From Planctomycetota bacterium (GTDB taxonomy: Bacteria; Planctomycetota; Phycisphaerae; Sedimentisphaerales; Anaerobacaceae): 64,000 nucleotides of DNA. The notes beneath the pieces were generated by a model. It worked only from the letters and a program-made list of their open reading frames with translations. It was not told the origin of the DNA and made no database searches. Position numbers and translations under genes: made by a program. This document shows, in pieces, positions 2,709-59,895 of this stretch. How positions within the stretch are numbered: the stretch's first letter is position 1; the number at the start of each line of letters is the position of its first letter. The stretch is taken from NCBI GenBank assembly GCA_022566315.1, contig JADFJC010000003.1:6109-70108 (forward strand). The letters run 5' to 3'.

Positions 2709-4025
2709 ATGAAAAAACGAAGTATTAATGTATTGGGCAAATTGGTGTTTATTACAATAATGGTTGGGGTGTTCACACCGGCGACTGTGTTGGCCCAGCA
2801 GAACGCTGACACAAGGATAGATAAGCTCGAATCGCAGCTTAAATCGCTTCAAGACGAGCTGGCAAAGTTAAAAGCAGAAAGAGCAGCGCCCCCGGTTGAC
2901 CAAAAGCAGATCGAACAACTGGTCAGCAAAGCTTTTGAAGAGAAAAAGGATGAGCTCGGAACCGTACCTGATTGGGTACAGAATATTAAAATTAGCGGTG
3001 ACTTTAGGTATCGCCACGAGCAGCTCGACTCAGAAGACCCAAGCACTGGCAGATGGAACAACGGAGTAACTCGCAATCGGATGCGTGCGAGATTGATGTT
3101 CGATGCAAAGGTCAACGATGACTGGGATATTGCCTTCAGAATCGCAACTGGTAGTGATAAGAGTCCGATTTCAACAAATCAGGACCTTGAAGACTCTTTC
3201 TCAAAGAAGGATGTCTGGGTGGACCTTGCCTACTTCACCTGGCATCCCGCAGCACAGGAAGGACTGAAGGTCTTCGGTGGCAAGATGAAGAACGCCTTTT
3301 ACAGGGCTGGTAAGAGCGAGCTTATTTGGGATACCGACCTTAATCCTGAAGGTCTCGCAGTTCAGTATGTGATGCCCCTAAGTGATGTCGACCAAATATT
3401 CATCAACGGTGGTGGTTTTTGGGTTGATGAAAGTACCAGCGGTGTCGATACGTCACTGTGGGGTCTGCAATCTTACTGGAAGCGCACGATTGGAAATTCG
3501 GATTACATCCTTGCTGGTGCGAGCTACTATGACTTTGGCAACCTGCAAGGGCGGGACGACCTTAAAGGCACTTGGGGATCCTCAAGCTTCTTAGGCAATA
3601 CCTCCTCGGGCGGGCTATACACAAGTGACTATGATATCTTTGAAGGCTTCGCCGAATATGGTTTCCAATGGAGAGGTATGCCACTTGCCGTCTTTGGCAA
3701 TTACGCCCAAAATACCGTTGCGAGCACCTCTGAAGACACAGGCTGGCTGATTGGATGCAAACTCAACAAGGCCAAGGAGCCGGGCTCCTGGGAACTGAGA
3801 TATGACTACAGGGATCTGGAAGCAGATGCCGTAGTCGGTGCTATGAGTGAATCTGATTGGCTTAGCGGTGGAACAGACGGCAAAGGCCATAAGTTCGTCT
3901 TCAAGTATCAGTTAGCCAAGAATGTCCAGGCAGGTCTCACCTATTATCACCTTGAAAATAATCGTAACAGTACTCGTGACGCGGATTATCGAAGGCTGCA
4001 AGCAGACCTGGTTTTCAAGTTCTAA
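2709..4025 (+). CDS. Putative outer-membrane porin with N-terminal coiled coil
   Basis: 438-aa ORF. Signal peptide (…VFTPATVLAQQ), coiled-coil segment (IDKLESQLKSLQDELAKLKAERA), then a beta-strand-rich sequence ending in ...ADLVFKF. A terminal aromatic residue is typical of OM beta-barrels. Confidence 0.6.
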   Translation: MKKRSINVLGKLVFITIMVGVFTPATVLAQQNADTRIDKLESQLKSLQDELAKLKAERAAPPVDQKQIEQLVSKAFEEKKDELGTVPDWVQNIKISGDFRYRHEQLDSEDPSTGRWNNGVTRNRMRARLMFDAKVNDDWDIAFRIATGSDKSPISTNQDLEDSFSKKDVWVDLAYFTWHPAAQEGLKVFGGKMKNAFYRAGKSELIWDTDLNPEGLAVQYVMPLSDVDQIFINGGGFWVDESTSGVDTSLWGLQSYWKRTIGNSDYILAGASYYDFGNLQGRDDLKGTWGSSSFLGNTSSGGLYTSDYDIFEGFAEYGFQWRGMPLAVFGNYAQNTVASTSEDTGWLIGCKLNKAKEPGSWELRYDYRDLEADAVVGAMSESDWLSGGTDGKGHKFVFKYQLAKNVQAGLTYYHLENNRNSTRDADYRRLQADLVFKF

Positions 4026-4128: not shown

Positions 4129-4388
4129 TTAGTTTTTAGCTAAAGTTGAACGAAGTGAAAGGCTGGAAAAAGGCGAAATGAGGCAGGAGCAGCAGCAGTG
4201 ATAAGGATGCAAAAATACTTGATATCGACAATCCCATTTGCAATCACAGGCCATACTTGGTACAATGTAGTGGTTCCCCCGACACAAAAAAAGACAAAGA
4301 GTATTTTCTCGCTTTACAAAGATCGAACATTTTGTTAGCATAATAATTTATTAGGGATATACAAATAACCCAGTCAGGAAAAAAGTTA

Positions 4389-4546
4389 GGACTGGTAAAG
4401 AAATTAGGTTTCGTTTTTGGCTGAGCGAGGACAAGGCTGGCAAGGAAGCAAAACGCAGGACTACTGGTTGGTAGTCCGAGTTTTGCTGACACCGCCAGCC
4501 GAAGCCGCAGCCAGACAAAAATGGAAGATAATTTATTTACAAGTCC
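4389..4546 (+). mobile_element. MITE-A copy 1 (158-bp palindromic element, flanked by TTA/TTA)
   Basis: Near-identical to 16724-16881 and 58329-58486. The ends GGACTGGTAAAGAAATTAGG... and ...TAATTTATTTACAAGTCC are imperfect inverted repeats (~29/36). The flanking triplet TTA is repeated directly at 4386-4388 and 4547-4549. Confidence 0.75.
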
Positions 4547-16641: not shown

Positions 16642-16723
16642 GGGTCATGACTATCCAGACTAACTTTGGAGCCGGTCGAAAACGACTCGACGGCGTTGGC
16701 TCACTCGAAGGGGTTAGCAGTAA

Positions 16724-16881
16724 GGACTGGTAAAGAAATTAGGTTTCGTTTTTGGCTGAGCGAGGACAAGGCTGGCAAGGAAGCAAAACGCAGGCCTACT
16801 GGTTGGTAGTCCGAGTTTTGCTGAGGCCGCCAGCCGAAGCCGCAGCCAGCCAAAAATGGAAGATAATTTATTTACAAGTCC
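16724..16881 (+). mobile_element. MITE-A copy 2 (flanked by TAA/TAA)
   Basis: 158 bp, collinear with copies 1 and 3 with no indels. TAA occurs at 16721-16723 and again at 16882-16884. Confidence 0.75.
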
Positions 16882-48691: not shown

Positions 48692-48699
48692 CTCGTATA

Positions 48700-49920
48700 T
48701 TACCGACCAGTTTTGTGTCTGTGACGCCGTCTATCTGTTTCTTTTAACTGCCTTTTGCGGCTGGTATTGAATCGGCGGGGTCTATTTTTTGGCTTTCTGA
48801 TATTATTCAACTGGGGATCGGCAGATAGCCAGACGGGGTCAATATTGTTATTTTTTATAATTGTTTTTAATGTATGCAAATCATGTGTGCTGAAGAATGT
48901 AACGGCAATGCCTTTTCTTCCCATTCTGGCGGTTCGGCCTGTCCGATGCGTATATGCCAGCGGGCTGTCAGGGAAATCATAATTAATCACATGTGTTACA
49001 TAGCTAAAATCGAGACCTCTGCTTACAATGTCGGTGGCGACAATTGTTTTGAGCTGCTTTTTCTTAAATCGATTGAAAAGTGACGACCGCCTCGACTGTT
49101 CCATGCCTCCATGCATGATATCGACTGAATCAATTTCCTTTTTTAATTTATCAAACAGATTTTCGCAGTTCCTTCGAGATTTACAAAATATTATTGCCTG
49201 GGTTGGCTTTGTGTTCTTTATGTATTGAAGCAGCGAGGCAAATTTCTTGCGTCCGGTGGTCTGCTGGAAATGGTGGCAGAGACTTAGGGGTGCTACCTGA
49301 ACGACATTGAGCTCAAGAGTGACAGGATTCTTGAGGTATTTTTTTGCCAGGTGTTTAATCTCTTTCGGCATTGTCGCAGCAAAAAGCAGCGTCTGGTGTT
49401 CATGTATCAGGCATGAAATAATAAATTCGATATCAGTGATAAAGCCCATATTCAGCATTTCGTCCGCTTCGTCAAGTATAAAGGTCTGAACCTGCGACAG
49501 GCTCAAAGGGCTGTTACGGAGAAGATCGATAAGACGGCCGGGAGTGGCAATGAGGATATTTACACCATGGGACAGCTTTGCTTTCTGGATCTCGATGGGA
49601 AAACCGCCATAGACTGCAAATGGGGTGATACGAGTGAATTTGGCGACATCTGAGATGGCAGTTACGTATTGTAGAGCAAGCTCACGTGTGGGTACCAGGA
49701 CTAATGCCTGTATCTGGTTCTTGGCGGGGTCAATCGATTGGACGATTGGTATTCCACACGCAGCAGTCTTTCCGGAACCGGTCTCTGCCAGGGCAATCAT
49801 GTCTTTGCCTGCGATAATGTGTGGAAATGTTTCTTCCTGTATCGGGGTTAATTCCCTGTACCCGAGCTGCTTAAGGGCTTTTAATATCTGAGGTTTTAAG
49901 TTAAGTTCGGCGAATTTCAT
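48700..49920 (-). CDS. DEAD-box ATP-dependent RNA helicase with basic C-terminal tail
   Basis: Q-motif context (FAELNL...TPIQ), AETGSGKTAA, PTRELA, ILDEADEM (DEAD), FAATMP (SAT-like), HRTGRTAR. ATG 49920 is preferred over TTG 49932. Confidence 0.9.
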   Translation of the reverse strand: MKFAELNLKPQILKALKQLGYRELTPIQEETFPHIIAGKDMIALAETGSGKTAACGIPIVQSIDPAKNQIQALVLVPTRELALQYVTAISDVAKFTRITPFAVYGGFPIEIQKAKLSHGVNILIATPGRLIDLLRNSPLSLSQVQTFILDEADEMLNMGFITDIEFIISCLIHEHQTLLFAATMPKEIKHLAKKYLKNPVTLELNVVQVAPLSLCHHFQQTTGRKKFASLLQYIKNTKPTQAIIFCKSRRNCENLFDKLKKEIDSVDIMHGGMEQSRRSSLFNRFKKKQLKTIVATDIVSRGLDFSYVTHVINYDFPDSPLAYTHRTGRTARMGRKGIAVTFFSTHDLHTLKTIIKNNNIDPVWLSADPQLNNIRKPKNRPRRFNTSRKRQLKETDRRRHRHKTGR

Positions 49921-50017
49921 GTATAAAAGCAATTACTTTCTTTTTTCAAATTGTCATAGTGAGCAATTTTCGCATTATACACAAAATGTCGTCATTAACG
50001 AAACATAAATTAAATCT

Positions 50018-50255
50018 GTTGATACAGCCGGGTGCATGTCATGATTGTAGGTGGATTTTTCAGGCCTTTAGCGGTCTTTCAGCTAATAATACACGCTACC
50101 CCACGCTGCTATTTTGGGTAGGATGGGCTTTAGCCCATGCTGTTTTTTCACGAGTATCGAGCATCCAGCATTGAGACAAGCCATCCCCAAACTGCGCCTG
50201 AGGCTGCCACCCATTAAATAACGTGGTTTCTACCTACAAAGATGACATGCACCCG
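50018..50255. mobile_element. MITE-B: ~238-bp element with 27-bp imperfect terminal inverted repeats and ATACAG flanking duplication
   Basis: CGGGTGCATGTCATGATTGTAGGTGGA (50018-50044) matches the reverse complement of TCTACCTACAAAGATGACATGCACCCG (50229-50255) at 24/27. ATACAG occurs at 50011-50016 and 50256-50261. An internal hairpin plus T-run lies at ~50121-50148. Confidence 0.6.
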
Positions 50256-50416
50256 ATACAGACTACCTACTCATGGGCAATAAGGAGTTGTCTGCAAAAA
50301 TTGGACTAAAAGCCTTTCGCCGCATGGTATTCTACAACGGTAATATCGAGTGTCGCCTGCTGAAATACGAACTCTACAAAGGAACAAAACAACCGCGAAA
50401 CAGCGGGCAAGACTAA
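50256..50416 (+). pseudogene. Duplicate 3'-end fragment of the THUMP methyltransferase gene (52746-53924)
   Basis: Encodes ...LMGNKELSAKIGLKAFRRMVFYNGNIECRLLKYELYKGTKQPRNSGQD*, compared with LMGNKELAVKIGLKASRRMVFYNGKIECRLLKYELYKGTKQPRNSDQD* in the full gene. Identity is ~85-90% nt by eye. Homology continues ~80 nt past the stop, to ~50497. Confidence 0.8.
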
Positions 50417-50488
50417 CCCCAACCTTGCTAAGATGTATCATTGTGATTTTACTGGTAATGGATATAATACCGCTATGAACTGCCTTTA

Positions 50489-50507
50489 GGCAGATAAGTA
50501 ATGATTG
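50489..50507 (+). repeat. Cassette-boundary motif, degenerate copy (GGCAGATAAGTAATGATTG)
   Basis: It aligns with GGCGGATAAATATTGAAG of the other copies (~14/18), at the position where rlmL-3' homology ends. Confidence 0.4.
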
Positions 50508-50660
50508 TAAAGGGGACAGCCAAAGAGATGAAAGAATCATTAGCACATTTGCCGGAATTAAAATGGGATGAATTAGAACAACTCGCCCCCCTGCGTTAAA
50601 AAACTACATGAAGTGACAGAAAAGAATCTGTAAACAAAAAATAGGTGGCATTGTGTAGAT

Positions 50661-51509
50661 ATGAAAAAAGTTATTGATATCAATTACCTCCAGAAGCCCG
50701 TGTTAGAAGACTATCTTGCAAAAAATAGAGATAACTATGTTGTCTTTACCGACTTTGCCTGTATGGAAATTTATAAATGCAATGCATTGAAGAACCTTGC
50801 TTGCAAACTCAAAATTGTCTCCCAGTACCCTGATCAAGTAATTGTACTCAAAGGAACGCGAGAGATAGTTAGCCTAACTCTTGCCCCCAACAAGCTACCA
50901 CAAAGCCTTATAGACAACGCACAAACCATAGGTTTTCCTGAATTCTGTAATCAGACTAAATCTGCTTGCGAAGGTAACAATTTGCTTTCAAAGGAAGTGA
51001 GATTAAAAGAATCTTATGCGTCTCATTATCTTGAAGAACAAATGATATCTCATCAACTCATCGTTAATGCAATTAAAGGATTTGCCAAATCATATGGCCC
51101 ATCTTATTTAAGAGCACTTAGAACTGGCAAAAAGCTTCCTCCAGACATGCAGGAGAAGATAACTGAACATATCTATCTTATAACACTTAATTTTTTTAAA
51201 GGACATCCTGATGTTCAAGCCCAACCTGAATTTGATTCTTTAAAGAACAGCTACGTTTTTCGCTACTCAGTAAGCATATATCTTTTGTCACTAAGATGGA
51301 TAAAGGATGGAGGCATAGAGCAAGTCTCTGCAAAAAAACTACGTAATGACGCTGTAGACATGAGCTATGTCACCTACGCAACATATTTTGATGGCCTATT
51401 GTCCCTGGATAAGAAGCTCAATGCAATATATCGAGACACCTTAAATTATCTTCATTACTTTAACAGCCCTCAATTAATACAAGAGATTGGACCCTCCTTC
51501 GTCCCTTAG
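50661..51509 (+). CDS. PIN-like nuclease domain protein with large insertion (tentative); cargo of junction copy 1
   Basis: 282 aa. The N-terminal KKVIDINYL...VVFTDFACMEIYK and C-terminal RNDAVDMSYVTYATYFDGLLSLDKKL resemble the first Asp/Glu and last Asp strands of PIN domains. Motif-level call only. Confidence 0.4.
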   Translation: MKKVIDINYLQKPVLEDYLAKNRDNYVVFTDFACMEIYKCNALKNLACKLKIVSQYPDQVIVLKGTREIVSLTLAPNKLPQSLIDNAQTIGFPEFCNQTKSACEGNNLLSKEVRLKESYASHYLEEQMISHQLIVNAIKGFAKSYGPSYLRALRTGKKLPPDMQEKITEHIYLITLNFFKGHPDVQAQPEFDSLKNSYVFRYSVSIYLLSLRWIKDGGIEQVSAKKLRNDAVDMSYVTYATYFDGLLSLDKKLNAIYRDTLNYLHYFNSPQLIQEIGPSFVP

Positions 51510-51574
51510 GGACTACGGAGGACAGGCGAGTCCGCCCCCATAAATAAGGGGTAAATACCTGGGGCACAAGCTCC

Positions 51575-51629
51575 GGCGGATAAATCCGCCACACGGATGG
51601 CGGATAAATATTGAATAAGCAACGGGAAC
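51575..51629 (+). repeat. Cassette-boundary motif copy A (hairpin arms + GGCGGATAAATATTGAATAAGCAACGGGAAC)
   Basis: GGCGGATAAATCCGCC ACACGGAT GGCGGATAAATATTGAATAAGCAACGGGAAC. The same motif occurs at 54009-54063 and 54807-54837. Confidence 0.7.
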
Positions 51630-51745
51630 TTTTTTGCACAGGTGTTTTTTTTGTCATTTCGACCGAAGTGGAGAAATCTGTTTAAATAGACCTCTCGACT
51701 GCGCTCGAGGTGACAATGGGGCGCAATAATTAACTTTACTTGGCC

Positions 51746-51868
51746 TTACTGATGTTTTTTGCGGGCCTGGCGACGGCGGTCGGTTTCTTTTAACAGCCTT
51801 TTGCGGATTCTAATTGAATTAGGGCAAATCTCAACAAGCTCATCCTCTTGAAGGTACTCCATCGCCGT
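51746..51868 (-). pseudogene. Duplicate 3'-end fragment of typA
   Basis: Encodes AMEYLQEDELVEICPNSIRIRKRLLKETDRRRQARKKHQ*, compared with AMEYIQEDELVEICPSSIRIRKRLLKETDRRRYERKKPQ* at the typA C-terminus. Identity is ~80-85% nt by eye. The upstream part of the 89-aa ORF is unrelated. Confidence 0.8.
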
Positions 51869-52263
51869 GGCTGAAGACGCGCAGGAGGGGCTGGAACCAG
51901 CAACCGGAGCATGGCCGAATGGGTCGAATGGATCCGTGGCGTTAAAATAGGTAAAATATCTACGATTTTTCAACCAAAAGCGATGATACCTTCGAACAAA
52001 AATTAAATTTTTCAAAAATTCTTTAACTCTCTTGTTGACATCGAGTTACGAGAATCCCGAATCTCGATTCGATGACTTTTTTCGTATCAAACGTGCAGGT
52101 AGCTCTAATTATAGAGGCACTACTTTTTTCGCCTCCGGCAATAAGAAGACAAATAACCAATTAACTATGAACTATGAACCATTTACAAGCATCGAGAATC
52201 TCGGAGCGCAGCGCAGACCCCGCACCAATTGAGCTTAGCTCACGACTAATTGGTGCTGGGCAA

Positions 52264-52289
52264 GGCATCTCTACAATTGTAGAGATGCC
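52264..52289. repeat. Perfect 26-bp palindrome
   Basis: GGCATCTCTACAATTGTAGAGATGCC. REP-like hairpin or operator upstream of the methyltransferase gene. Confidence 0.6.
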
Positions 52290-52313
52290 TCTACAAATCA
52301 ACCCTTTTTATGC

Positions 52314-52680
52314 AAAACAAACCCAATTTCCAAAAAAGTCAAATGAACGTAAGTATCTATTTACAGACGGATTATGAAAATAAATCGCATTGGACACTTA
52401 GTGAAAACAAACCCAATACAAACCCAATCAAACCCAATTTCCAAAAGGCCAAAATGAACGTAAACTTATATGTTATAGAGGATTACAGAAAAAAAGATGA
52501 TTTCTTAGTCCGAATAAACAAACCCAATTGCCGAAAGGGTAAAAATTGATGCAAAGTTTGTATTTACAAAGGATTATGAAGAATAATGCGGATATGGGCT
52601 ATGAAAAAACAAACCCAAACAAAGCCAATTTCTTCAAAGGCCGAAATGAACTTAAAATCGATTGCCAAAAAATCTGGCCA
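52314..52680 (+). repeat. Degenerate tandem repeat, ~90-110-nt unit x ~4
   Basis: Units start at ~52314, 52404, 52514 and 52604. Each begins AAAACAAACCCAATTTCCAAAAGGCCAAAATGAACGTAA-like and continues ...TTACAGAGGATTATGAAAA... Confidence 0.65.
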
Positions 52681-52745
52681 CACCCTGATACAGCATCCGC
52701 CGCTTTGGTGTTGACAAAAGATGCAATTGAACGTAAATAATTTAG

Positions 52746-53924
52746 ATGGATATTAAAGAGCGCAAAAATATATTAGTTACCTGTGGGCCGGGGCTTAAAG
52801 AATATCTGCAGGCAGAACTTGAAGGATTAGGCTTTGAGATAGTCGGAAGTCACGTCGGAAGTGTTGTCACACGCGGGTCGTTTATCGATTGTATGAAACT
52901 GAATTTCTGTCTGCGAACCGCTTATAACGTCCTTTATCTTCTAAAAGAGTTTCGTTGCGGCAGCAGCGAATCACTCTACAAACAAATCAACAGACTGCCA
53001 TGGGAAAATATCATCGCCCCTGAAGAATATCTATGCGTACTCTCGCGGGTCGATACCTGGTCGATTAACAACAGCATGTATCCGAGCCTCAAGGTCAAAG
53101 ATGCAATCGTTGACCGCATATACAAAAAGACCGGCTCCAGGCCTGATAGCGGCCCGGACAGAAACAAGGTCGTCGTCAATCTTTTCTGGAAGGAGCACAG
53201 GGCATGGATATATCTTAATACTTCCGGCGTAAAACTTTCTGACCGTAACTATCGTAAGATGCCGCACAAAGCACCGCTTCGCGAATCGTTGGCGGCCGGG
53301 ATTATCATGGCGACAGGATATGACGGTTCACAAGATATCGTGCTGCCGATGTGCGGCAGTGGTACGCTTGCTATCGAAGCTGTTCTTTTAGCGATGAACA
53401 GGCCGGCCGGCAGCCTGCGCAGCAATTTTGGTTTTAAACATGTGAAAGTTTTTGATGAGCAGATATGGCAGGAAATACGAAATAGTGTTCGCAAGAATAT
53501 ACGCAAGGACGGGCTGCGAAAACGTGTTATCGCCACGGATATAGATGAACAAGCTATCGAAGCGGCCAGGCAGAACGCGCGAACGGCGGGAGTCGAACAG
53601 TTGATAGAATTTGATGTGTGTGACTTCGCCGATACCGAAGTGCCGGAAGGTAAGGGGATTGTGGTGATGAATCCGGAATACGGGCTGCGGCTGGGCGAAC
53701 TTGAACAGCTCGAAAAAGAGTATAAACGCATTGGCGACTTTCTCAAACAGAAATGCGCCGGTTATACAGGCTATCTACTCATGGGCAATAAAGAGCTGGC
53801 TGTAAAAATTGGATTAAAAGCTTCTCGCCGTATGGTATTCTACAACGGCAAAATAGAGTGCCGTCTGCTGAAATATGAACTCTACAAAGGAACAAAACAA
53901 CCGCGAAACAGCGACCAGGACTAA
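52746..53924 (+). CDS. THUMP-domain class I SAM-dependent RNA methyltransferase (RlmL/UPF0020-like)
   Basis: 392 aa. N-terminal ferredoxin-like/THUMP region, PMCGSGTLAIEA (SAM motif I), ATDID and VMNPEYGLRLG (NPPY-type motif IV). Confidence 0.85.
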   Translation: MDIKERKNILVTCGPGLKEYLQAELEGLGFEIVGSHVGSVVTRGSFIDCMKLNFCLRTAYNVLYLLKEFRCGSSESLYKQINRLPWENIIAPEEYLCVLSRVDTWSINNSMYPSLKVKDAIVDRIYKKTGSRPDSGPDRNKVVVNLFWKEHRAWIYLNTSGVKLSDRNYRKMPHKAPLRESLAAGIIMATGYDGSQDIVLPMCGSGTLAIEAVLLAMNRPAGSLRSNFGFKHVKVFDEQIWQEIRNSVRKNIRKDGLRKRVIATDIDEQAIEAARQNARTAGVEQLIEFDVCDFADTEVPEGKGIVVMNPEYGLRLGELEQLEKEYKRIGDFLKQKCAGYTGYLLMGNKELAVKIGLKASRRMVFYNGKIECRLLKYELYKGTKQPRNSDQD

Positions 53925-54008
53925 CCCTAACCTCACGTTGTGGCTTACTAAGATATATCGTTGTGGTTTTACTGGTAATGGATATAATGCCGTTATGAAC
54001 TAACTTTA

Positions 54009-54063
54009 GGCGGATGAATCCGCCACACGGATGGCGGATAAATATTGAAGAATCAACGGGAAC
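54009..54063 (+). repeat. Cassette-boundary motif copy B
   Basis: GGCGGATGAATCCGCC ACACGGAT GGCGGATAAATATTGAAGAATCAACGGGAAC. It lies immediately after the end of rlmL-3' homology and 8 nt before the HEPN gene ATG. Confidence 0.7.
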
Positions 54064-54070
54064 AGGGAAT

Positions 54071-54682
54071 ATGAATTCTAAAAAAAAATGGGAATACTTT
54101 AGCAAGAGGCTTGAAACCATGTGGGATGTATACCGCGAATGTATGGAACACTTTGATGCAAAATTTTCAGAAAAGTGGAAAGTATTTTGCGAAAGTAGAG
54201 ATGAGCAAAAATACAAAGAATACCTTCGTGAGATTGAATTCCCATACATAAATACTCTGAATAGCGCAATGCTAATTGCATTTTGTTCGCTAACAGAACA
54301 TGTGGTGGCTGATATTACGAATGAAAATGTGCCGGGATATGAAGAAAAGAAGAAACGGAAAAGAGGAAATTGGCTTGTTAGAAATATTAAACTTCTAAAC
54401 GAACGCGGGTTTGATATAGACCAAAATGGCGAAGATGTCAGACTTTTCTCCTATTATATACAAATTAGAAATTGTGTAGTCCACAATGGAGGAAAGATTT
54501 CGAATTCAAAACATTCGAAGCAGCTTAAAGAGGCGATTGATGCTGTTGAGAAGTATGCTAAAGACCCTAATTATAATATGATAAAAATTAAAGATGATTA
54601 TTTGATGTTAGGGAGTGGTTTGATTTCGGATGTTGTTGAAAAAAGTGAAGATATAATAGAAAGAATTCTTGAAAAAATATAG
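54071..54682 (+). CDS. HEPN-domain protein (predicted RNase; Rx4H motif)
   Basis: 203 aa from MNSKKKWEYF; the upstream part of the ORF is the boundary motif. It is all-alpha by composition. YYIQIRNCVVHNGGKIS carries the R-x4-H HEPN signature in the expected C-terminal helix. AT-rich. Confidence 0.55.
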   Translation: MNSKKKWEYFSKRLETMWDVYRECMEHFDAKFSEKWKVFCESRDEQKYKEYLREIEFPYINTLNSAMLIAFCSLTEHVVADITNENVPGYEEKKKRKRGNWLVRNIKLLNERGFDIDQNGEDVRLFSYYIQIRNCVVHNGGKISNSKHSKQLKEAIDAVEKYAKDPNYNMIKIKDDYLMLGSGLISDVVEKSEDIIERILEKI

Positions 54683-54806
54683 CTCGGTAGGGTGCGCAGC
54701 AGGCTTGCCTGTGCTTCAGGTACTTGTTTGCACACGCGGAATCATTCAATAAAAGAGATTGGACGAGTCCACCATCCGTCTTTGCTAAAGCTACGCCGGA
54801 CAAGTA

Positions 54807-54837
54807 GGCGGATAAATATTGAAGGACCAACGGGAAC
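54807..54837 (+). repeat. Cassette-boundary motif copy C
   Basis: GGCGGATAAATATTGAAGGACCAACGGGAAC, 125 nt after the HEPN gene stop. Confidence 0.7.
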
Positions 54838-55104
54838 TTGTTATACAGAAAGAAACTTCTCTGTCTTTCCCGTCTTATACAGACTATATAATCGGTATTA
54901 GATATTTGATAACAGGAATATGTGATGAGCAAGAACAAGCCAGAAGTTTTTATTATTGAATCTCTGGGAATGAATGATGAAAGGAAAAACCTAATTAGTG
55001 AACTTCTACAATACTGTCTGGGCTGCTGTACAATTCAATAAACCACACAATAAGTAACTTATCAGCAACATGGCATTCTGTACTTTAGAAAAGTTAATAC
55101 TTTT

Positions 55105-55665
55105 TTAAGCGGGGAACAAGCTATTTTCCTTATACTTAAGTGACTCAATTTTCCTCTTCAGCCCTATTTTTTTATCAGCCTTTACAAGGACATTTTCTGA
55201 CATATAAGAAATCAATTTTTCAAAATCGTTTGCATTAGAAATTTCGACAAATTCTTTAATCTTATTTATGAACACTACTGTTTTTTTCTTATTAGCCAGC
55301 ATTTCAATTGCATTACATAAAGTACCTGTACTCTTGGTATCCCATACCATTAAGCCATAGTCAGCGATGGATGCCATCTCTATGTCTTTTGCAGTAAAGA
55401 AAGCACGGGTACCTGGCTTATACTTCGAATAAGTGTTATGTGTTTTCCAGTGGCCCAAATTATTTCTAAGTGAATCGCCGCTATGAAATATTGTTACATT
55501 CTGATAGGATGCTTTGCATAAATAATCTTGAATTGAACTGTCAACACCGCTGGCATCTCCCAATACAATATCAAATCCCGAGCTAATAATGTTGTCAATC
55601 CTATCTTTGACTTTTTTATCAATGTTCTTAATTTGCATTGAACCAGATATGAAAACAGTTGTCAT
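55105..55665 (-). CDS. DprA/SLOG-superfamily (Rossmann-like nucleotide-binding) protein
   Basis: 186 aa. VFISGS..., IVLGDASGVDSSIQDYL (the GxAxGxD motif of DprA/Smf-type SLOG domains) and WDTKSTGTLCNAIEM (the second glycine-rich SLOG motif). It begins 2 nt after the PRTase stop. Confidence 0.55.
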   Translation of the reverse strand: MTTVFISGSMQIKNIDKKVKDRIDNIISSGFDIVLGDASGVDSSIQDYLCKASYQNVTIFHSGDSLRNNLGHWKTHNTYSKYKPGTRAFFTAKDIEMASIADYGLMVWDTKSTGTLCNAIEMLANKKKTVVFINKIKEFVEISNANDFEKLISYMSENVLVKADKKIGLKRKIESLKYKENSLFPA

Positions 55666-55667
55666 AA

Positions 55668-56252
55668 TTATCTTTTCCTGGTAAACGCAACAACATAGAT
55701 ATTATTAACTTTGGAATATGTCTTAAGAGTTAGAGCAGCAGCATTTAGTGAAGTCCCTGAACCATAAATATCATCAATTAACAGCACATCCCAGCAATCT
55801 TCACCGACTATTTCGTCTTTAATAGAAAATGCAGTTGCTAATACTTTTATCTTTTCTTTGATGGATTCTATATCTTTCATTTGAGGAGTTCTAACTTTTT
55901 TGATTAATATGTTTTCACATAGTGGAACATCCATCTTTTTAGCAATTTCCTTGGCTAATTCTGTTAAAGGCTGAAATACCCTTCGTTTTGAAGGTGGCAT
56001 AGGAACAATAAATCCTACTGAACTAAGTTTTGATTTCAAATTTTCGATAAATGCATCAACAAGAAGAGGGATCTTTTTACGATCGTTTTTATACTTCAAT
56101 TGATACATTGCTTCACCTACATCTGTTCTAACGGTATCAAAGTCAGGATGACCATATTGGTTATCACCGATAAATACTGAAGATTTTACGTGTTTGTCTA
56201 AGGTATAACCAGCATGCCAGTTACCATTAATTATTTTAACATTAACATCCAT
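55668..56252 (-). CDS. ComF-like phosphoribosyltransferase (PRTase) lacking the N-terminal zinc finger
   Basis: 194 aa. The PRPP-binding loop VLLIDDIYGSGTSLNAAALTL sits near the C-terminus, preceded by VPMPPSKRR...QPLTELAKEIAKKM, as in ComF/GntX-family proteins. AAGGA SD. Confidence 0.7.
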   Translation of the reverse strand: MDVNVKIINGNWHAGYTLDKHVKSSVFIGDNQYGHPDFDTVRTDVGEAMYQLKYKNDRKKIPLLVDAFIENLKSKLSSVGFIVPMPPSKRRVFQPLTELAKEIAKKMDVPLCENILIKKVRTPQMKDIESIKEKIKVLATAFSIKDEIVGEDCWDVLLIDDIYGSGTSLNAAALTLKTYSKVNNIYVVAFTRKR

Positions 56253-56452
56253 ATTATAATCCTTAAAAATTTGGAGAAAATTAAAGGGGTCAGTTTACCC
56301 CCAAGGGGCTTTGCCCCCTAAGTGACACCTTTTTTGTAAGAGCACGGCCCATATAACTCCACTTTTCTTTGAAAAGCCTAACCTACAACCCCCAATTTGT
56401 CAAGAAATCTGCGTAATCAGCGCAATCTGTGGCTAATTCTTTTCGTGTTGTC

Positions 56453-58312
56453 TTACTGCGGTTTTTTGCGTTCGTAACGCCGTCTATCCGTTTCTTTTAA
56501 CAGCCTTTTGCGGATTCGAATCGAAGATGGGCAAATCTCAACAAGCTCATCCTCTTGAATGTACTCCATCGCCGCTTCAAGACTCATCTTTCTTGCAGGT
56601 CTGACCTTGGCTGCATCGTCTTTGCCCGCTGCCCGAATGTTGGTAAGCTGCTTGCTTCTTACAACGTTTACAGTTATGTCCTTCTCCTTGCAGTGTTCCC
56701 CGACTACTTGTCCTTCATATACTTTTTCTCCCGGCTCAACAAAGAAAATGCCGCGGTCGTATAAGGCATCAAGTGCATAAGCGGTAACTTGTCCCATAGT
56801 GGTCGCAATCATAACTCCCGCCTTCCGCTGAGGTATCGCTCCCCGCATCAGCTCATATCTTTCAAACGTATGATGCATAATCGCTCTGCCGCTGGTCGCA
56901 TTCATCATCCTGGCATTTAGGCCGAACAAACCCCGCGAAGGTATCAAAAATTCCATGTGAATAAAATCACTCGCTCCGCTTTTGGGATCTATTTTAATTA
57001 TTTCACTTCTACGGTCGCCAAGAAGACTCATCACGGAATTCTGGCAATCCAACGGGCAATCCACCGCAAGTAATTCTATTGGTTCATGCCGCCTCTCATC
57101 GACTATTCTCAAAATCACATTCGGCTTGCCCACACAAACCTCATACCCTTCACGCCGCATATTCTCTAACAATATCCCAAGATGCATCAGCCCTCTGCCC
57201 GAAACATTGAATTCTTCAGGACTCTGCCCCTCTTCCACCCTTAACGCAACATTCTGCTGAAGCTCCTTTTCAAGCCTTTCTCCAATTTGTCTGCTTGTTA
57301 CATATTTGCCGTCTCTGCCTGCGAAAGGCCCATTATTAACTCTGAATGTCATTGTCATCGTCGGCTCATCAATAGAGATGACCGCAAGCCTCGAAGGTTT
57401 ATCCGCACAGGCAATCGTGTCACCTATCTCAACAGGATCAAGTCCCGATATCGCACAGATATCACCTGCCTGAACGCTTGAAACCTGCTTTCTGCCAAGG
57501 CCGTGAAACTGATGAATATGCATAACTTTCTGCTGGGTATGCAGACTTTCGGCGTCAATTACTGTAACTAACTGACCTTCGGTTATTGTTCCCGCGAAAA
57601 CCTTGCCAATTGCTATTCGTCCAACATACTCCGAATACTCCTGGTTTGTCACTAACATTTGCAACGGCGCGTCCTGGTCAACTTTTGGCGAGGGAATATT
57701 GTTTATTATCGCATCGAATATTGCCTGGACATTATCGGTTTTATTAGCCAGATCTGTTGTTGCCCAACCCTCTTTGGCTGATGCGTAAACAAGTGGAAAA
57801 TCGAGAGCATCATCATCTGCGCCGAGTGATACGAGCAGATCGAATACTTCATTTACGACATCGTCTGGCCTGCTGTTTTCGCGGTCAACTTTGTTTATGA
57901 CTACTACTAATTTTAGTTTGTGTTCGAGGGCTTTGGTCAATACAAATCTTGTTTGCGGCATTGGGCCTTCAAATGCATCTACCAGGACTAATACGCCGTC
58001 TGCCATTTTTAAAACTCGTTCGACCTCGCCGCCAAAATCGGCATGGCCTGGAGTGTCGATCAGATTGATCTTATATTCATCGCCTTTTGAGTCGGTATAG
58101 TTGATCTCGCAGTTTTTGCTTAGGATTGTTATGCCGCGTTCTTTTTCGAGGGGGTTTGAATCCATTATCAAATTGTGCTGGCCGCCGGCTAATTTGTCGA
58201 GATCTTCGGTTCTGAACATGCCGGACTGGTAGAGAAGCTGGTCTACGAGCGTTGTTTTGCCATGATCAACATGGGCGATTATTGCTACATTACGAATATA
58301 ATCTGAATACAT
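56453..58312 (-). CDS. typA: Translational GTPase TypA/BipA
   Basis: 619 aa. IRNVAIIAHVDHGKTTLVD, DTPGHADFGGEVER, NKVDR and the BipA-specific C-terminal domain ending ...ICPSSIRIRKRLL. Confidence 0.92.
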   Translation of the reverse strand: MYSDYIRNVAIIAHVDHGKTTLVDQLLYQSGMFRTEDLDKLAGGQHNLIMDSNPLEKERGITILSKNCEINYTDSKGDEYKINLIDTPGHADFGGEVERVLKMADGVLVLVDAFEGPMPQTRFVLTKALEHKLKLVVVINKVDRENSRPDDVVNEVFDLLVSLGADDDALDFPLVYASAKEGWATTDLANKTDNVQAIFDAIINNIPSPKVDQDAPLQMLVTNQEYSEYVGRIAIGKVFAGTITEGQLVTVIDAESLHTQQKVMHIHQFHGLGRKQVSSVQAGDICAISGLDPVEIGDTIACADKPSRLAVISIDEPTMTMTFRVNNGPFAGRDGKYVTSRQIGERLEKELQQNVALRVEEGQSPEEFNVSGRGLMHLGILLENMRREGYEVCVGKPNVILRIVDERRHEPIELLAVDCPLDCQNSVMSLLGDRRSEIIKIDPKSGASDFIHMEFLIPSRGLFGLNARMMNATSGRAIMHHTFERYELMRGAIPQRKAGVMIATTMGQVTAYALDALYDRGIFFVEPGEKVYEGQVVGEHCKEKDITVNVVRSKQLTNIRAAGKDDAAKVRPARKMSLEAAMEYIQEDELVEICPSSIRIRKRLLKETDRRRYERKKPQ

Positions 58313-58328
58313 AACAAACTTTCAATTA

Positions 58329-58486
58329 GGACTGGTAAAGAAATTAGGTTTCGTTTTTGGTTGAGCGAGGACAAGGCTGGCAAGGAAGCAAAACGCAGAC
58401 CTACTGGTTGGTAGTCCGAGTTTTGCTGAGGCCGCCAGCCGAAGCCGCAGTCAGCCAAAAATGGAAGATAATTTATTTACAAGTCC
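58329..58486 (+). mobile_element. MITE-A copy 3 (flanked by TTA/TTA)
   Basis: 158 bp between the MFS stop and the typA start. TTA occurs at 58326-58328 and 58487-58489. Confidence 0.75.
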
Positions 58487-59800: not shown

Positions 59801-59895
59801 AACGCAGGCCTACTGGTTGGTAGTCCAAGTTTTGCTGAGGCCGCCAGCCAAAGCCGCAGCCAGCCAAAAATGGAAGATAATTTATTTACAAGTCC
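59801..59895 (+). mobile_element. MITE-A copy 4, 3'-terminal 95 bp only
   Basis: It aligns with positions 64-158 of the full copies and is followed by TAA (59896-59898). The 5' 63 bp are absent, and the MFS start codon lies 6 nt to the left. Confidence 0.7.

Follow-up and report, generated by a model that had tools for sequence, protein, structure and literature searches.

The interval between a gene for an RlmL-like RNA methyltransferase (rlmL) and typA in a member of the Planctomycetota appears to be a recombination-driven slot for variable cargo, and a foreign piece of such a slot, bearing both of its borders, has probably been captured a short distance upstream, beside a miniature inverted-repeat transposable element (MITE). 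Our analysis covers a 64,000-nt window of contig JADFJC010000003.1 (GCA_022566315.1), which its homologues and the fetched loci assign to metagenome-assembled genomes of the Sedimentisphaerales/Phycisphaerae (Planctomycetota); all coordinates are positions in this window, and L-numbers designate the fetched comparison loci. The captured piece is 1.6 kb long and lies 2.5 kb upstream of the resident slot. As an overall explanation of the locus, a recombination-driven slot together with a foreign slot piece captured beside a MITE is the best that we can offer, and we estimate its probability at roughly 60%.

Two copies of the rlmL-typA junction

Both gene ends are present twice, in the same orientation and 3.5-4.7 kb apart. 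On the rlmL side, repeat finding and blastn align 50256-50495 with 53764-54015 at 83.7% identity over 252 columns (E 6e-76), and the same repeat can be divided into two ungapped blocks, 50256-50425 and 50424-50495, of 88% each; on the typA side, blastn aligns 51745-51867 with 56452-56574 at 85.4% over 123 nt (E 3e-35). These similarities are far beyond chance, lie essentially where an initial annotation had placed them and fall within its by-eye estimate of ~80-90%. Its calls of a THUMP methyltransferase and of typA were upheld by Pfam, and the limits that it set to the homology, the typA stop codon on one side and a shared motif on the other, were close to the mark: the typA-side similarity stops 1 nt beyond the stop codon, and the rlmL-side similarity stops at GGC(A/G)GAT, the opening 7 nt of the motif. 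This motif extends over 55 nt (51575-51629 against 54009-54063, 95%), with a partial third copy at 54783-54837; first described as a 31-nt motif at which homology ends, it does mark that end-point, but it is also a cassette-boundary element of the slot.

The upstream copy had been taken for a second junction in its own place, which it is not. In relatives with 90-96% identical flanks the intergenic sequence between rlmL and the neighbouring DEAD-box helicase gene (DEAD) is unbroken (...AAATCTGTTGATACAGCATCC...), and the window was aligned to the empty sites of L001, L003, L006 and L007; in the window the same site holds an insertion of 2,657 bp (50029-52685) with TGATACAGC at both edges (9/9), and the copied junction is a passenger of this insertion. 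From left to right it consists of the MITE, the 3' end of a foreign rlmL (rlmL'), a cassette with its leader, the 3' end of a foreign typA ('typA) and a block of interspersed repeats, here called X (Table 1); its internal junction sequences are CACCCGATACAGACTACC and GGCCACACCCTGATACAG.

That the source is a metagenome-type assembly, and that several related contigs break at the rlmL 3' end (L069, L071-L073), would suit a chimera assembled from two co-occurring strain variants, an artefact that the initial annotation had been concerned about. We consider it extremely improbable, however, as both junctions are covered by other assemblies: four of their contigs, from at least two further samples, span the left or the right junction at 98-100% identity. 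L074, L075 and L077, taken from ENA (L074 and L077 from different samples), run from LepA/DEAD through the MITE, rlmL', the cassette gene labelled PIN-like and 'typA to ~52130 at 99.0-99.6%, and L076 (NCBI GCA_022561195.1) matches 50042-52135 at 99.8%, differs for 133 nt and then matches again over 52269-53875 (98.0%), a stretch that reaches the resident rlmL. At the junctions every covering contig has the same sequence, and the junctions lie in unique sequence (the MITE and X), not in collapsed allelic sequence.

For the origin of the upstream copy, the initial annotation had left open the capture of a relative's allele and an old duplication, and only the first of these stands. Both fragments keep their reading frame and stop codon, and their differences from the resident genes are mostly synonymous (12 synonymous and 6 non-synonymous codon changes in rlmL', 8 and 5 in 'typA, 20/31 synonymous for the two fragments together), from which it would follow that the divergence arose in functional genes of another lineage. 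A closer match can also be found elsewhere: 51599-51867 (269 nt) is 91.5% identical to L011 15627-15895 as against 85% to the resident typA end, the 'typA tail carrying an L011-type allele. This evidence supports the view that the ectopic copy is a captured piece of another lineage's slot and not a local duplication. An old tandem duplication in place, later diverged and mostly lost, would fit the spacing and the common orientation of the copies, yet it is hardly credible and we rejected it, because the site is empty in relatives, the intact, in-frame and mainly synonymous fragments indicate divergence as functional genes, parts of them resemble other lineages more than they do the resident genes, and the boundaries coincide with the MITE and the target repeat. 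In L075 and L077 the ectopic 'typA contains a 25-nt patch of resident type (51755-51779, 10 substitutions), which brings it from 85% to 90% identity with the end of the resident typA; the patch looks like gene conversion and is consistent with continuing conversion between the copies.

Variable cargo between rlmL and typA in relatives

The gene order of the relatives is LepA (-), DEAD (-), ~150 nt across which DEAD and rlmL diverge, the rlmL-like gene (+), a variable interval, typA (-) and an MFS gene (-). The rlmL-like protein has thousands of homologues, and 73 loci were retrieved; synteny with DEAD was seen in L001, L003, L005-L009 and L011, and the rlmL-like and typA flanks were confirmed in L002, L004, L006, L008, L011, L020, L073 and L209. 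At least 11 related genomes share these flanks and differ in what lies between them, over lengths of 0.65 kb (L006), 1.5 kb (L004), ~1.7 kb (L209), 2.5 kb (the window), at least 2.6 kb (L073), 3.1 kb (L008), 3.2 kb (L020), 3.3 kb (L002) and 4.6 kb (L011). The alternative cargos include a type II restriction-modification pair (L008; REase_II 1e-115), a Mrr_cat protein (L001), a KAP NTPase resembling QatA/PifA (L071), a HEPN protein with a zeta-toxin-like kinase (L073), an HNH_5 protein (L208/L209), an HTH-ResIII helicase (HTH_17-helicase; L007), a Bro-N protein (L002), an RlmN-like radical-SAM protein (L004) and, in L011 and L210, many small proteins without known family. Genomes that share a 93-96% identical rlmL have at least seven different cargo sets between them, and such unrelated content beside so similar a gene points to fast turnover.

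The comparison of the interval across related genomes, which the initial annotation had proposed, thus upholds its variable cargo site, and does so independently of the duplicate. The latter had been offered as direct evidence of an exchange hotspot; the hotspot stands on the comparative data, but the duplicate alone does not prove it. Taken together, these genomes show an interval that behaves as a recombination-driven variable cargo slot in the Sedimentisphaerales clade. The resident cargo is AT-rich, as had been claimed, with a GC content of 31-39% against 45-51% in the flanks.

Gene calls and Pfam revealed no recombinase gene in the hotspots examined. Domains of integrases and transposases are absent from the cargo of the window, L001, L002, L008, L011, L073, L208 and L210, L007 has the HTH_17-helicase alone, and no integrase is encoded over ~8 kb left of the slot and 5 kb right of it, where the flanks hold Gcv genes, LepA and DEAD on one side and the MFS gene, a Mo-oxidoreductase and a 728-aa protein of no known family on the other. 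tRNA scans and Rfam searches (E up to 1) of the region returned nothing, which suggests that tRNA-type integration sites and known RNA families are not involved, and the core motif of the inter-cassette element had 0 matches in viral contigs, giving no sign of phage carriage. Exact-protein look-ups for the rlmL and DEAD proteins of the window found no record.

Gene-end fragments also accumulate inside the hotspot. The L020 slot contains two additional rlmL ends: a 3' fragment of 223 nt (85%), after which come 13 nt and a short typA end, and a piece of 60-90 nt that lies 13 nt from the true typA stop (nested rlmL and typA 3' ends at 498-720, 1567-1825 and 3891-3982 of that locus). From this junction, the empty state of the slot would be the rlmL stop, 13 nt and the typA stop, and L020 shows that incoming cargo brings its own diverged border copies. 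Incoming DNA would most likely replace or add cargo through homologous recombination, which would find its matching sequence in the conserved gene ends and in the repeated inter-cassette elements. The signs of recombination in the flanks are indirect, namely mosaic identities, the resident-like 'typA patch of L075 and L077 and the diverged gene-end repeats of L020.

A side observation concerns the bin MFD13424_ilm_asm_bin26, which holds both L008, with a full rlmL-typA locus, and L071, which starts at rlmL codon 339, at about the same point as the fragment in the window, and runs into an inter-cassette element and the KAP NTPase gene. L071 is either a strain variant or a further displaced copy.

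Inter-cassette elements and slot organisation

Beside rlmL, the slot opens with a promoter-like segment and a leader, after which come co-directional single-gene cassettes, each followed by an inter-cassette element; the typA-proximal side may hold cargo on the opposite strand, here a pair of genes resembling ShosTA. The promoter-like sequence downstream of rlmL (TTGTGA-16-TATAAT) scores 10/12 in a consensus scan, and the segment that contains it also lies behind rlmL in L001, L003, L008, L011, L020 and L073. In many genomes this segment is followed by a conserved leader that opens with a short open reading frame (ORF), MIVKGTAKEMK; the leader of the ectopic copy is homologous to L001 9640-10053, L073 1-351 and L002 2832-2894. 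Its 32-codon ORF (MIVKGTAKEMKESLAHL...) shares its start with a 168-aa cassette gene of L002 (2854-3360), which suggests that cassettes could be swappable within the first few codons too.

The inter-cassette element has a core, GGCGGATAAATATTGAAGAANCAACGGGAAC (also written as GGCGGATAAATATTGAAGAAGCAACGGGAAC), and every core is preceded by a left module, CGGAATCATTTAATAAAAGAGATTGGACGAGTCCGCC. In alignment, the two are separated by a GC stem, TCCGCC...GGCGGA, with a loop that holds 0-3 extra hairpin modules, so that the element is 70-165 nt long (71 nt in its minimal form). The core is present 15 times in the window and eight related genomes (nine contigs), always on the rlmL strand and between rlmL and typA. 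In 1.75 Mb of fetched loci there were 19 core matches, plus three more copies in the window itself; all are in the hotspot or in copies of the ectopic fragment, and on the rlmL strand, except for the match in L103, a short contig. The arrangement is most regular in L011, where each of five co-directional ORFs is followed by a core copy, one of them a variant with 5 mismatches, and the HEPN cassette gene of the window has a core on either side. The whole HEPN cassette (54008-54849) is 84% identical over 863 nt to L073 859-1696, where its array neighbours are different. We would infer, though weakly, that the element combines a terminator-like hairpin with a conserved box that perhaps promotes expression of the next cassette.

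Integron arrays consist of co-directional, mostly single-gene cassettes after a fixed promoter, and their attC sites are structured repeats with a variable centre, imperfect palindromes with complementary R''/R' ends (RYYYAAC...GTTRRRY). The slot resembles them in the direction of its cassettes, its fixed upstream promoter region and the repeat after each cassette. It differs in that no integrase was found near the slot and that its repeat forms a short hairpin only, with neither complementary R''/R' ends nor GTTRRRY. An attC-like reading of the element was rejected for want of complementarity between its conserved halves; its stem measures 6-7 bp only.

A rival explanation is that cargo turnover, and with it the gene-end fragments, is the work of a site-specific recombinase encoded elsewhere in the genome that acts on the inter-cassette element or on the rlmL and typA ends, which would make of the slot an integron-like, attC-type cluster lacking its integrase. 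Co-directional single-gene cassettes split by a conserved structured repeat with variable central modules would be expected of such a system, as would the presence of the same cassette at different array positions; moreover, the L020 cargo blocks are flanked by junction direct repeats of 91 and 223 nt that recall attL/attR, and the motif GTTATACAG appears both at the 3' edge of the core and at the rlmL breakpoint. Nevertheless, we find this explanation improbable. Neither the sequence within ~8 kb (left) and 5 kb (right) of the slot nor the cargo tested contains an integrase, the element lacks the long hairpin of attC, the GTTATAC at its 3' edge violates GTTRRRY, and the L020 flanking repeats are only ~85% identical, which suits homologous exchange of diverged alleles more than it does a short identical core.

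The ectopic insertion and its route

The terminal repeat of the MITE was found in at least 120 metagenome stretches, including full-length copies of ~1396 bp (1394-1411 bp) whose ~420-aa ORF matches the NCBIfam ISKra4 transposase NF033572 with 293.5 bits (cut-off 205); eight copies of the family have perfect 9-bp target duplications. At the insertion GATACAG occurs three times: to the left of the MITE (GATACAGCC, 50021-29), to its right (GATACAGAC, 50255-63) and at the right edge of the whole insertion (GATACAGCA, 52687-95, native sequence). The duplication made by the MITE could be GATACAGCC/GATACAGAC (8/9) or, using the displaced copy, GATACAGCC/GATACAGCA (8/9). Within GATACAGAC, ATACAGAC is rlmL sequence. 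The base before it, 50255, is G here and T in the rlmL of 22/22 relatives, which argues that this G comes from the intergenic target.

These details could be accommodated by two events. First, an ISKra4-family MITE would have inserted at GATACAGCA and duplicated 9 bp. Second, a foreign fragment of 2.43 kb, comprising the hotspot piece and 0.8 kb of repeats, would have joined 1 nt from the right end of the MITE, using the microhomology ATACAG (6 nt) that rlmL shares with the target duplicate, either in the repair of a break made by the transposase or by homology-facilitated illegitimate recombination. If the transposase cut at the end of the MITE and foreign DNA was used to mend the break, the coincidence of MITE and fragment would be accounted for. 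A history in which the fragment arrived before the MITE fits just as well, and each order requires one later substitution. Among the orders of events weighed for the three GATACAG copies, none removes every coincidence, and the two most economical were kept.

Several observations weigh against the explanation that we favour. For the slot, no exchange event was seen directly, homologous recombination as its driver being deduced from structure alone; in addition, the best sigma-70-like form of the core, TTGAAG-17-TATACA, fails the consensus scan, and the core matches no Rfam family. For the insertion, the three GATACAG copies allow the two alternative MITE target duplications, each of them imperfect at 8/9, and none of 210 fetched loci showed a MITE-only or fragment-only intermediate between DEAD and rlmL. 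Moreover, the insertion as a whole has the termini GGGTG...CACCC and a perfect 9-bp flank, which is what one transposition event of the ISKra4 type would leave, and in L091 the closest relative of the MITE (95.7%) lies 126 nt from an element of the 51938-52155 type that is part of X, in the same orientation, a hint that the MITE could have moved in company with X.

The last two points belong to a rival explanation in which the MITE, the fragment and X (50030-52685) moved as one unit, through an ISKra4-family transposase acting in trans on the left end of the MITE and on a cryptic right end, CACCC at 52685, and generated the 9-bp duplication. The outer ends are the conserved termini of the family, the direct repeat TGATACAGC is perfect at a site that is empty in relatives, and the family makes 9-bp duplications both here and in published cases (PMC3942029). 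We regard a single transposition as unlikely, although well short of negligible. Its right end matches just 5 nt of a terminal repeat of ~26 nt, where a composite transposon has two recognisable insertion sequence (IS) ends and this one shares CACCC only; blast finds no further similarity of the X block or the fragment to the full-length IS; and an extra C stands between the perfect repeat and GGGTG, which was unseen in other copies with a clear duplication. It would also leave unexplained the match of GATACAGAC to the new target (7-8 of 9) and the presence of the target's G instead of rlmL's T at the first base. We infer that the two-event capture is the most economical reading, with an exact route that is ambiguous between a microhomology join at the MITE end and composite transposition.

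The X block is itself composed of an element of ~220 nt (51938-52155), a 28-nt palindrome (52263-52290) and tandem repeats of ~100 nt (52315-52656), and repeats of the same types exist in L073, L091, L011, L092 and L187. The tandem units (AAACAAACCCAATTTCC...AAATGAACGTAA...) lie upstream of unrelated genes in related genomes (L091 1302-1673, L011 19724-19855, L092 7-318 and 12028-12362, L187 5101-5400), and gene callers take them for the N-terminus of an ORF (MQNKPNFQKSQMNV...). The ~220-nt element, which carries hairpins and T-runs (CATCGA...TCGATG, GAGGC...GCCTC) and has no Rfam match, recurs at L073 9161-9350 and at L091 4818-5035, upstream of a 98-aa gene in the latter, with 83-87% identity between genomes. 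The palindrome is perfect (core GGCATCTCTACAATTGTAGAGATGCC) and stands just ahead of the tandem repeats, at the edge of the stretch that differs in L076 (52136-52268).

Table 1. Features of the ectopic insertion, the resident slot and their conserved neighbours.
Feature	Position	Strand	Support or remark
DEAD-box helicase gene, left conserved neighbour	48700..49932	-	Pfam DEAD 2.7e-47, Helicase_C
Left target repeat	50020..50029	.	TGATACAGC (50020-28) against 52686-94, 9/9
MITE, ISKra4 family, 225 bp, GGGTG...CACCC, ~26-nt inverted repeats	50030..50254	+	
G and foreign rlmL 3' fragment (final 53 codons, stop), begins ATACAG	50255..50416	+	88% to 53764-53933
rlmL-downstream segment, promoter-like TTGTGA-16-TATAAT	50417..50495	+	matches 53925-54015
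First-cassette leader with 32-codon ORF 50501-50599; resident copy without it	50496..50660	+	
Ectopic cargo gene, 282 aa, no assigned family	50661..51509	+	
Inter-cassette element copy 1: part of left module TCAATTAATACAAGAGATTGGAC, hairpin modules, core GGCGGATAAATATTGAATAAGCAACGGGAAC	51470..51634	+	
typA-proximal spacer of foreign allele	51635..51744	+	
Foreign typA 3' fragment (final 39 codons, stop)	51745..51867	-	85% to 56452-56574; ORF 51746-52015 matches BipA_C (Pfam)
Interspersed-repeat block X, 0.8 kb, ending ...CACACCC	51868..52685	+	
Right target repeat	52686..52695	.	TGATACAGC; GATACAGCA is native sequence
Resident THUMP/RlmL-like RNA methyltransferase gene, left hotspot border	52746..53924	+	Pfam UPF0020 5e-40, THUMP, RlmL_1st
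Resident rlmL-downstream promoter-like segment, leading straight into core 54009-54063	53925..54063	+	
HEPN-like cassette gene, motif RNCVVH	54071..54682	+	weak PADLOC RTasHEPN 9.2e-6
Inter-cassette element copy 3 (left module, degenerate hairpin, core)	54737..54837	+	
ShosA/DprA-like SLOG-fold protein, 186 aa	55105..55665	-	AlphaFold2 predicted local distance difference test (pLDDT) 94.6
Phosphoribosyltransferase (PRTase), ShosT/PsyrT-like toxin candidate, 194 aa	55668..56252	-	PADLOC PsyrT 7.6e-14, ShosT 2.9e-10
Resident typA/bipA gene, right hotspot border	56453..58312	-	Pfam GTP_EFTU, BipA_C; synteny

Captured and resident cargo genes

The 282-aa protein of the captured cassette is identical (100%) to a protein (P0121) recorded on 18 contigs, and its closest homologues have 74-79% identity and other genomic contexts, nucleotide homology being confined to 50619-51473; inter-cassette sequence makes up the final 36 nt of the ORF. 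Relatives were expected to have homologues in this hotspot too, but the three that were looked up all lay in other contexts. The protein had been labelled PIN-like, a label that was not confirmed: Pfam, PADLOC, NCBIfam, a PDB sequence search and a fold search gave no support for a PIN assignment, the structural model, although confident (pLDDT 89), having no significant fold match in the PDB and a best PIN structure at probability 0.16 and E 1.9. A PIN fold has four conserved acidic residues; in the 282-aa protein D6, E36, D230, D233 and D250 are invariant, and four short strands are present. The captured cassette may still be expressed, as it keeps its own promoter-like segment and an intact ORF.

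On the typA-proximal side of the resident slot, the initial annotation had recognised a DprA/SLOG-like protein paired with a phosphoribosyltransferase, and PADLOC and the PDB fold match agree in making the pair ShosTA-like. ShosTA is a defence system of the toxin-antitoxin type with a PRTase and a DprA-like partner, in which ShosT has an N-terminal pyrophosphatase domain and ShosA a SAM domain (PMC11961720). As in ShosTA, a PRTase protein adjoins a DprA-fold protein, and the best fold match of the 186-aa partner is ShosA itself (PDB 8zva, E 8.3e-5, probability 1.00), DprA structures coming next; its model is a single Rossmann-like domain followed by C-terminal helices, and it matches no profile, including that of PADLOC for ShosA. 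The PRTase, which is comF-like, reaches 21.8 bits with Pfam Pribosyltran, below the gathering cut-off, and its ShosT match spans only positions 83-210 of 237. Unlike the described system, the two proteins have 194 and 186 aa, the SAM domain of ShosA is apparently missing and the pyrophosphatase domain of ShosT probably is too. From profiles and models, 55105-56252 would thus be a compact relative of ShosTA but not an established full member, since neither protein is as long as those described. The 186-aa protein belongs to a highly conserved family (P0241-P0360) of 872 homologues, with 55-64% identity in Proteobacteria, Bdellovibrionales and Desulfobacteraceae, that carries no Pfam annotation (one member is labelled DUF2493 by UniRef); this spread suggests wide horizontal transfer of the compact module.

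Two further repeats touch the flanking genes. The end of DEAD (48697-48777, its last ~20 codons with the stop) is homologous in nucleotide sequence to that of typA, with 88% over 50 nt for the resident gene, likewise in L001 (7239-7319) and much more weakly in L011; the typA tail thus exists in a third and older copy, as part of the gene beside lepA. An interspersed repeat of ~150 nt is present four times in the window (4388-4533, 16721-16868, 58328-58473 and 59834-59882) and again at the end of L091 (94-100% identical), and overlaps the ORF starts MAGCGFGWRPQQN and MADCGFGWRPQQN beside typA and the MFS gene.

Discussion

The closest known kinds of locus are the minimal mobile elements (MMEs) of Neisseria and the core defence hotspots of Pseudomonas. 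MMEs (Saunders & Snyder 2002; Snyder 2007) are described as variable regions between specific conserved genes that have no mobility genes of their own and whose exchange is attributed to homologous recombination in the flanks (PMC3787668). The rlmL-typA slot is like them in its conserved flanks, in a gene content that differs among close relatives and in its lack of mobility genes. Unlike MMEs, it has an internal order set by a repeated inter-cassette element, together with a promoter and leader that are conserved; truncated ends of the flanking genes persist both inside it (L020) and outside it (the window), and natural transformation is not known for this clade. The core defence hotspots of P. 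aeruginosa (cDHS1/2) have core genes as flanks and variable defence cargo with a median of 26 kb, and their transfer through flanking homology has been proposed, the mode of assembly and exchange remaining open (PMC10250203); E. coli defence-island hotspots (PMC10121019) are a comparable case. Consistent core flanks, variable defence cargo and the absence of a clear single class of mobile element are shared with cDHS1/2, whereas the slot described here is small (0.65-4.6 kb), consists of single-gene cassettes with a dedicated repeat, belongs to another phylum and has a displaced copy of both borders. The slot thus departs from known hotspots in having an inter-cassette repeat of its own, homology arms that were retained and a displaced copy associated with a MITE.

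ISKra4-type elements produce target repeats of 8-9 bp and form circular intermediates (PMC3942029). The MITE of the window has the shared terminal inverted repeats, the 9-bp duplications and the promoter-bearing intergenic site of ISKra4 MITEs, but unlike the published ones it abuts captured chromosomal DNA of another lineage, and the -35 box of rlmL is ~28 nt from the right edge of the insertion as against 13-17 nt in the published case (PMC3942029).

A bolder proposal, possible though rather unlikely, is that the locus represents a cassette system free of recombinases, in which the inter-cassette element (a conserved 31-nt box with a terminator-like hairpin) would serve, like the ends of the two housekeeping genes, as a portable homology arm. 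Single defence or toxin genes could change places within the array and pass from one genome to another on short homology-armed fragments, which could also be captured at breaks at ISKra4-type ends and thereby seed satellite slots elsewhere in the genome.

Slots between core genes that hold defence genes but no mobility genes are well documented. The present locus is an unusually legible one, as it is small, has a defined empty state and a boundary repeat, and retains leftover homology arms inside the slot (L020) as well as a displaced copy; these features make the flanking-homology model testable in an under-studied phylum. In addition, it offers an example of a MITE located exactly at the junction of captured DNA, and its small cassette genes, as yet uncharacterised, form a list of candidates for roles in defence or as toxins.

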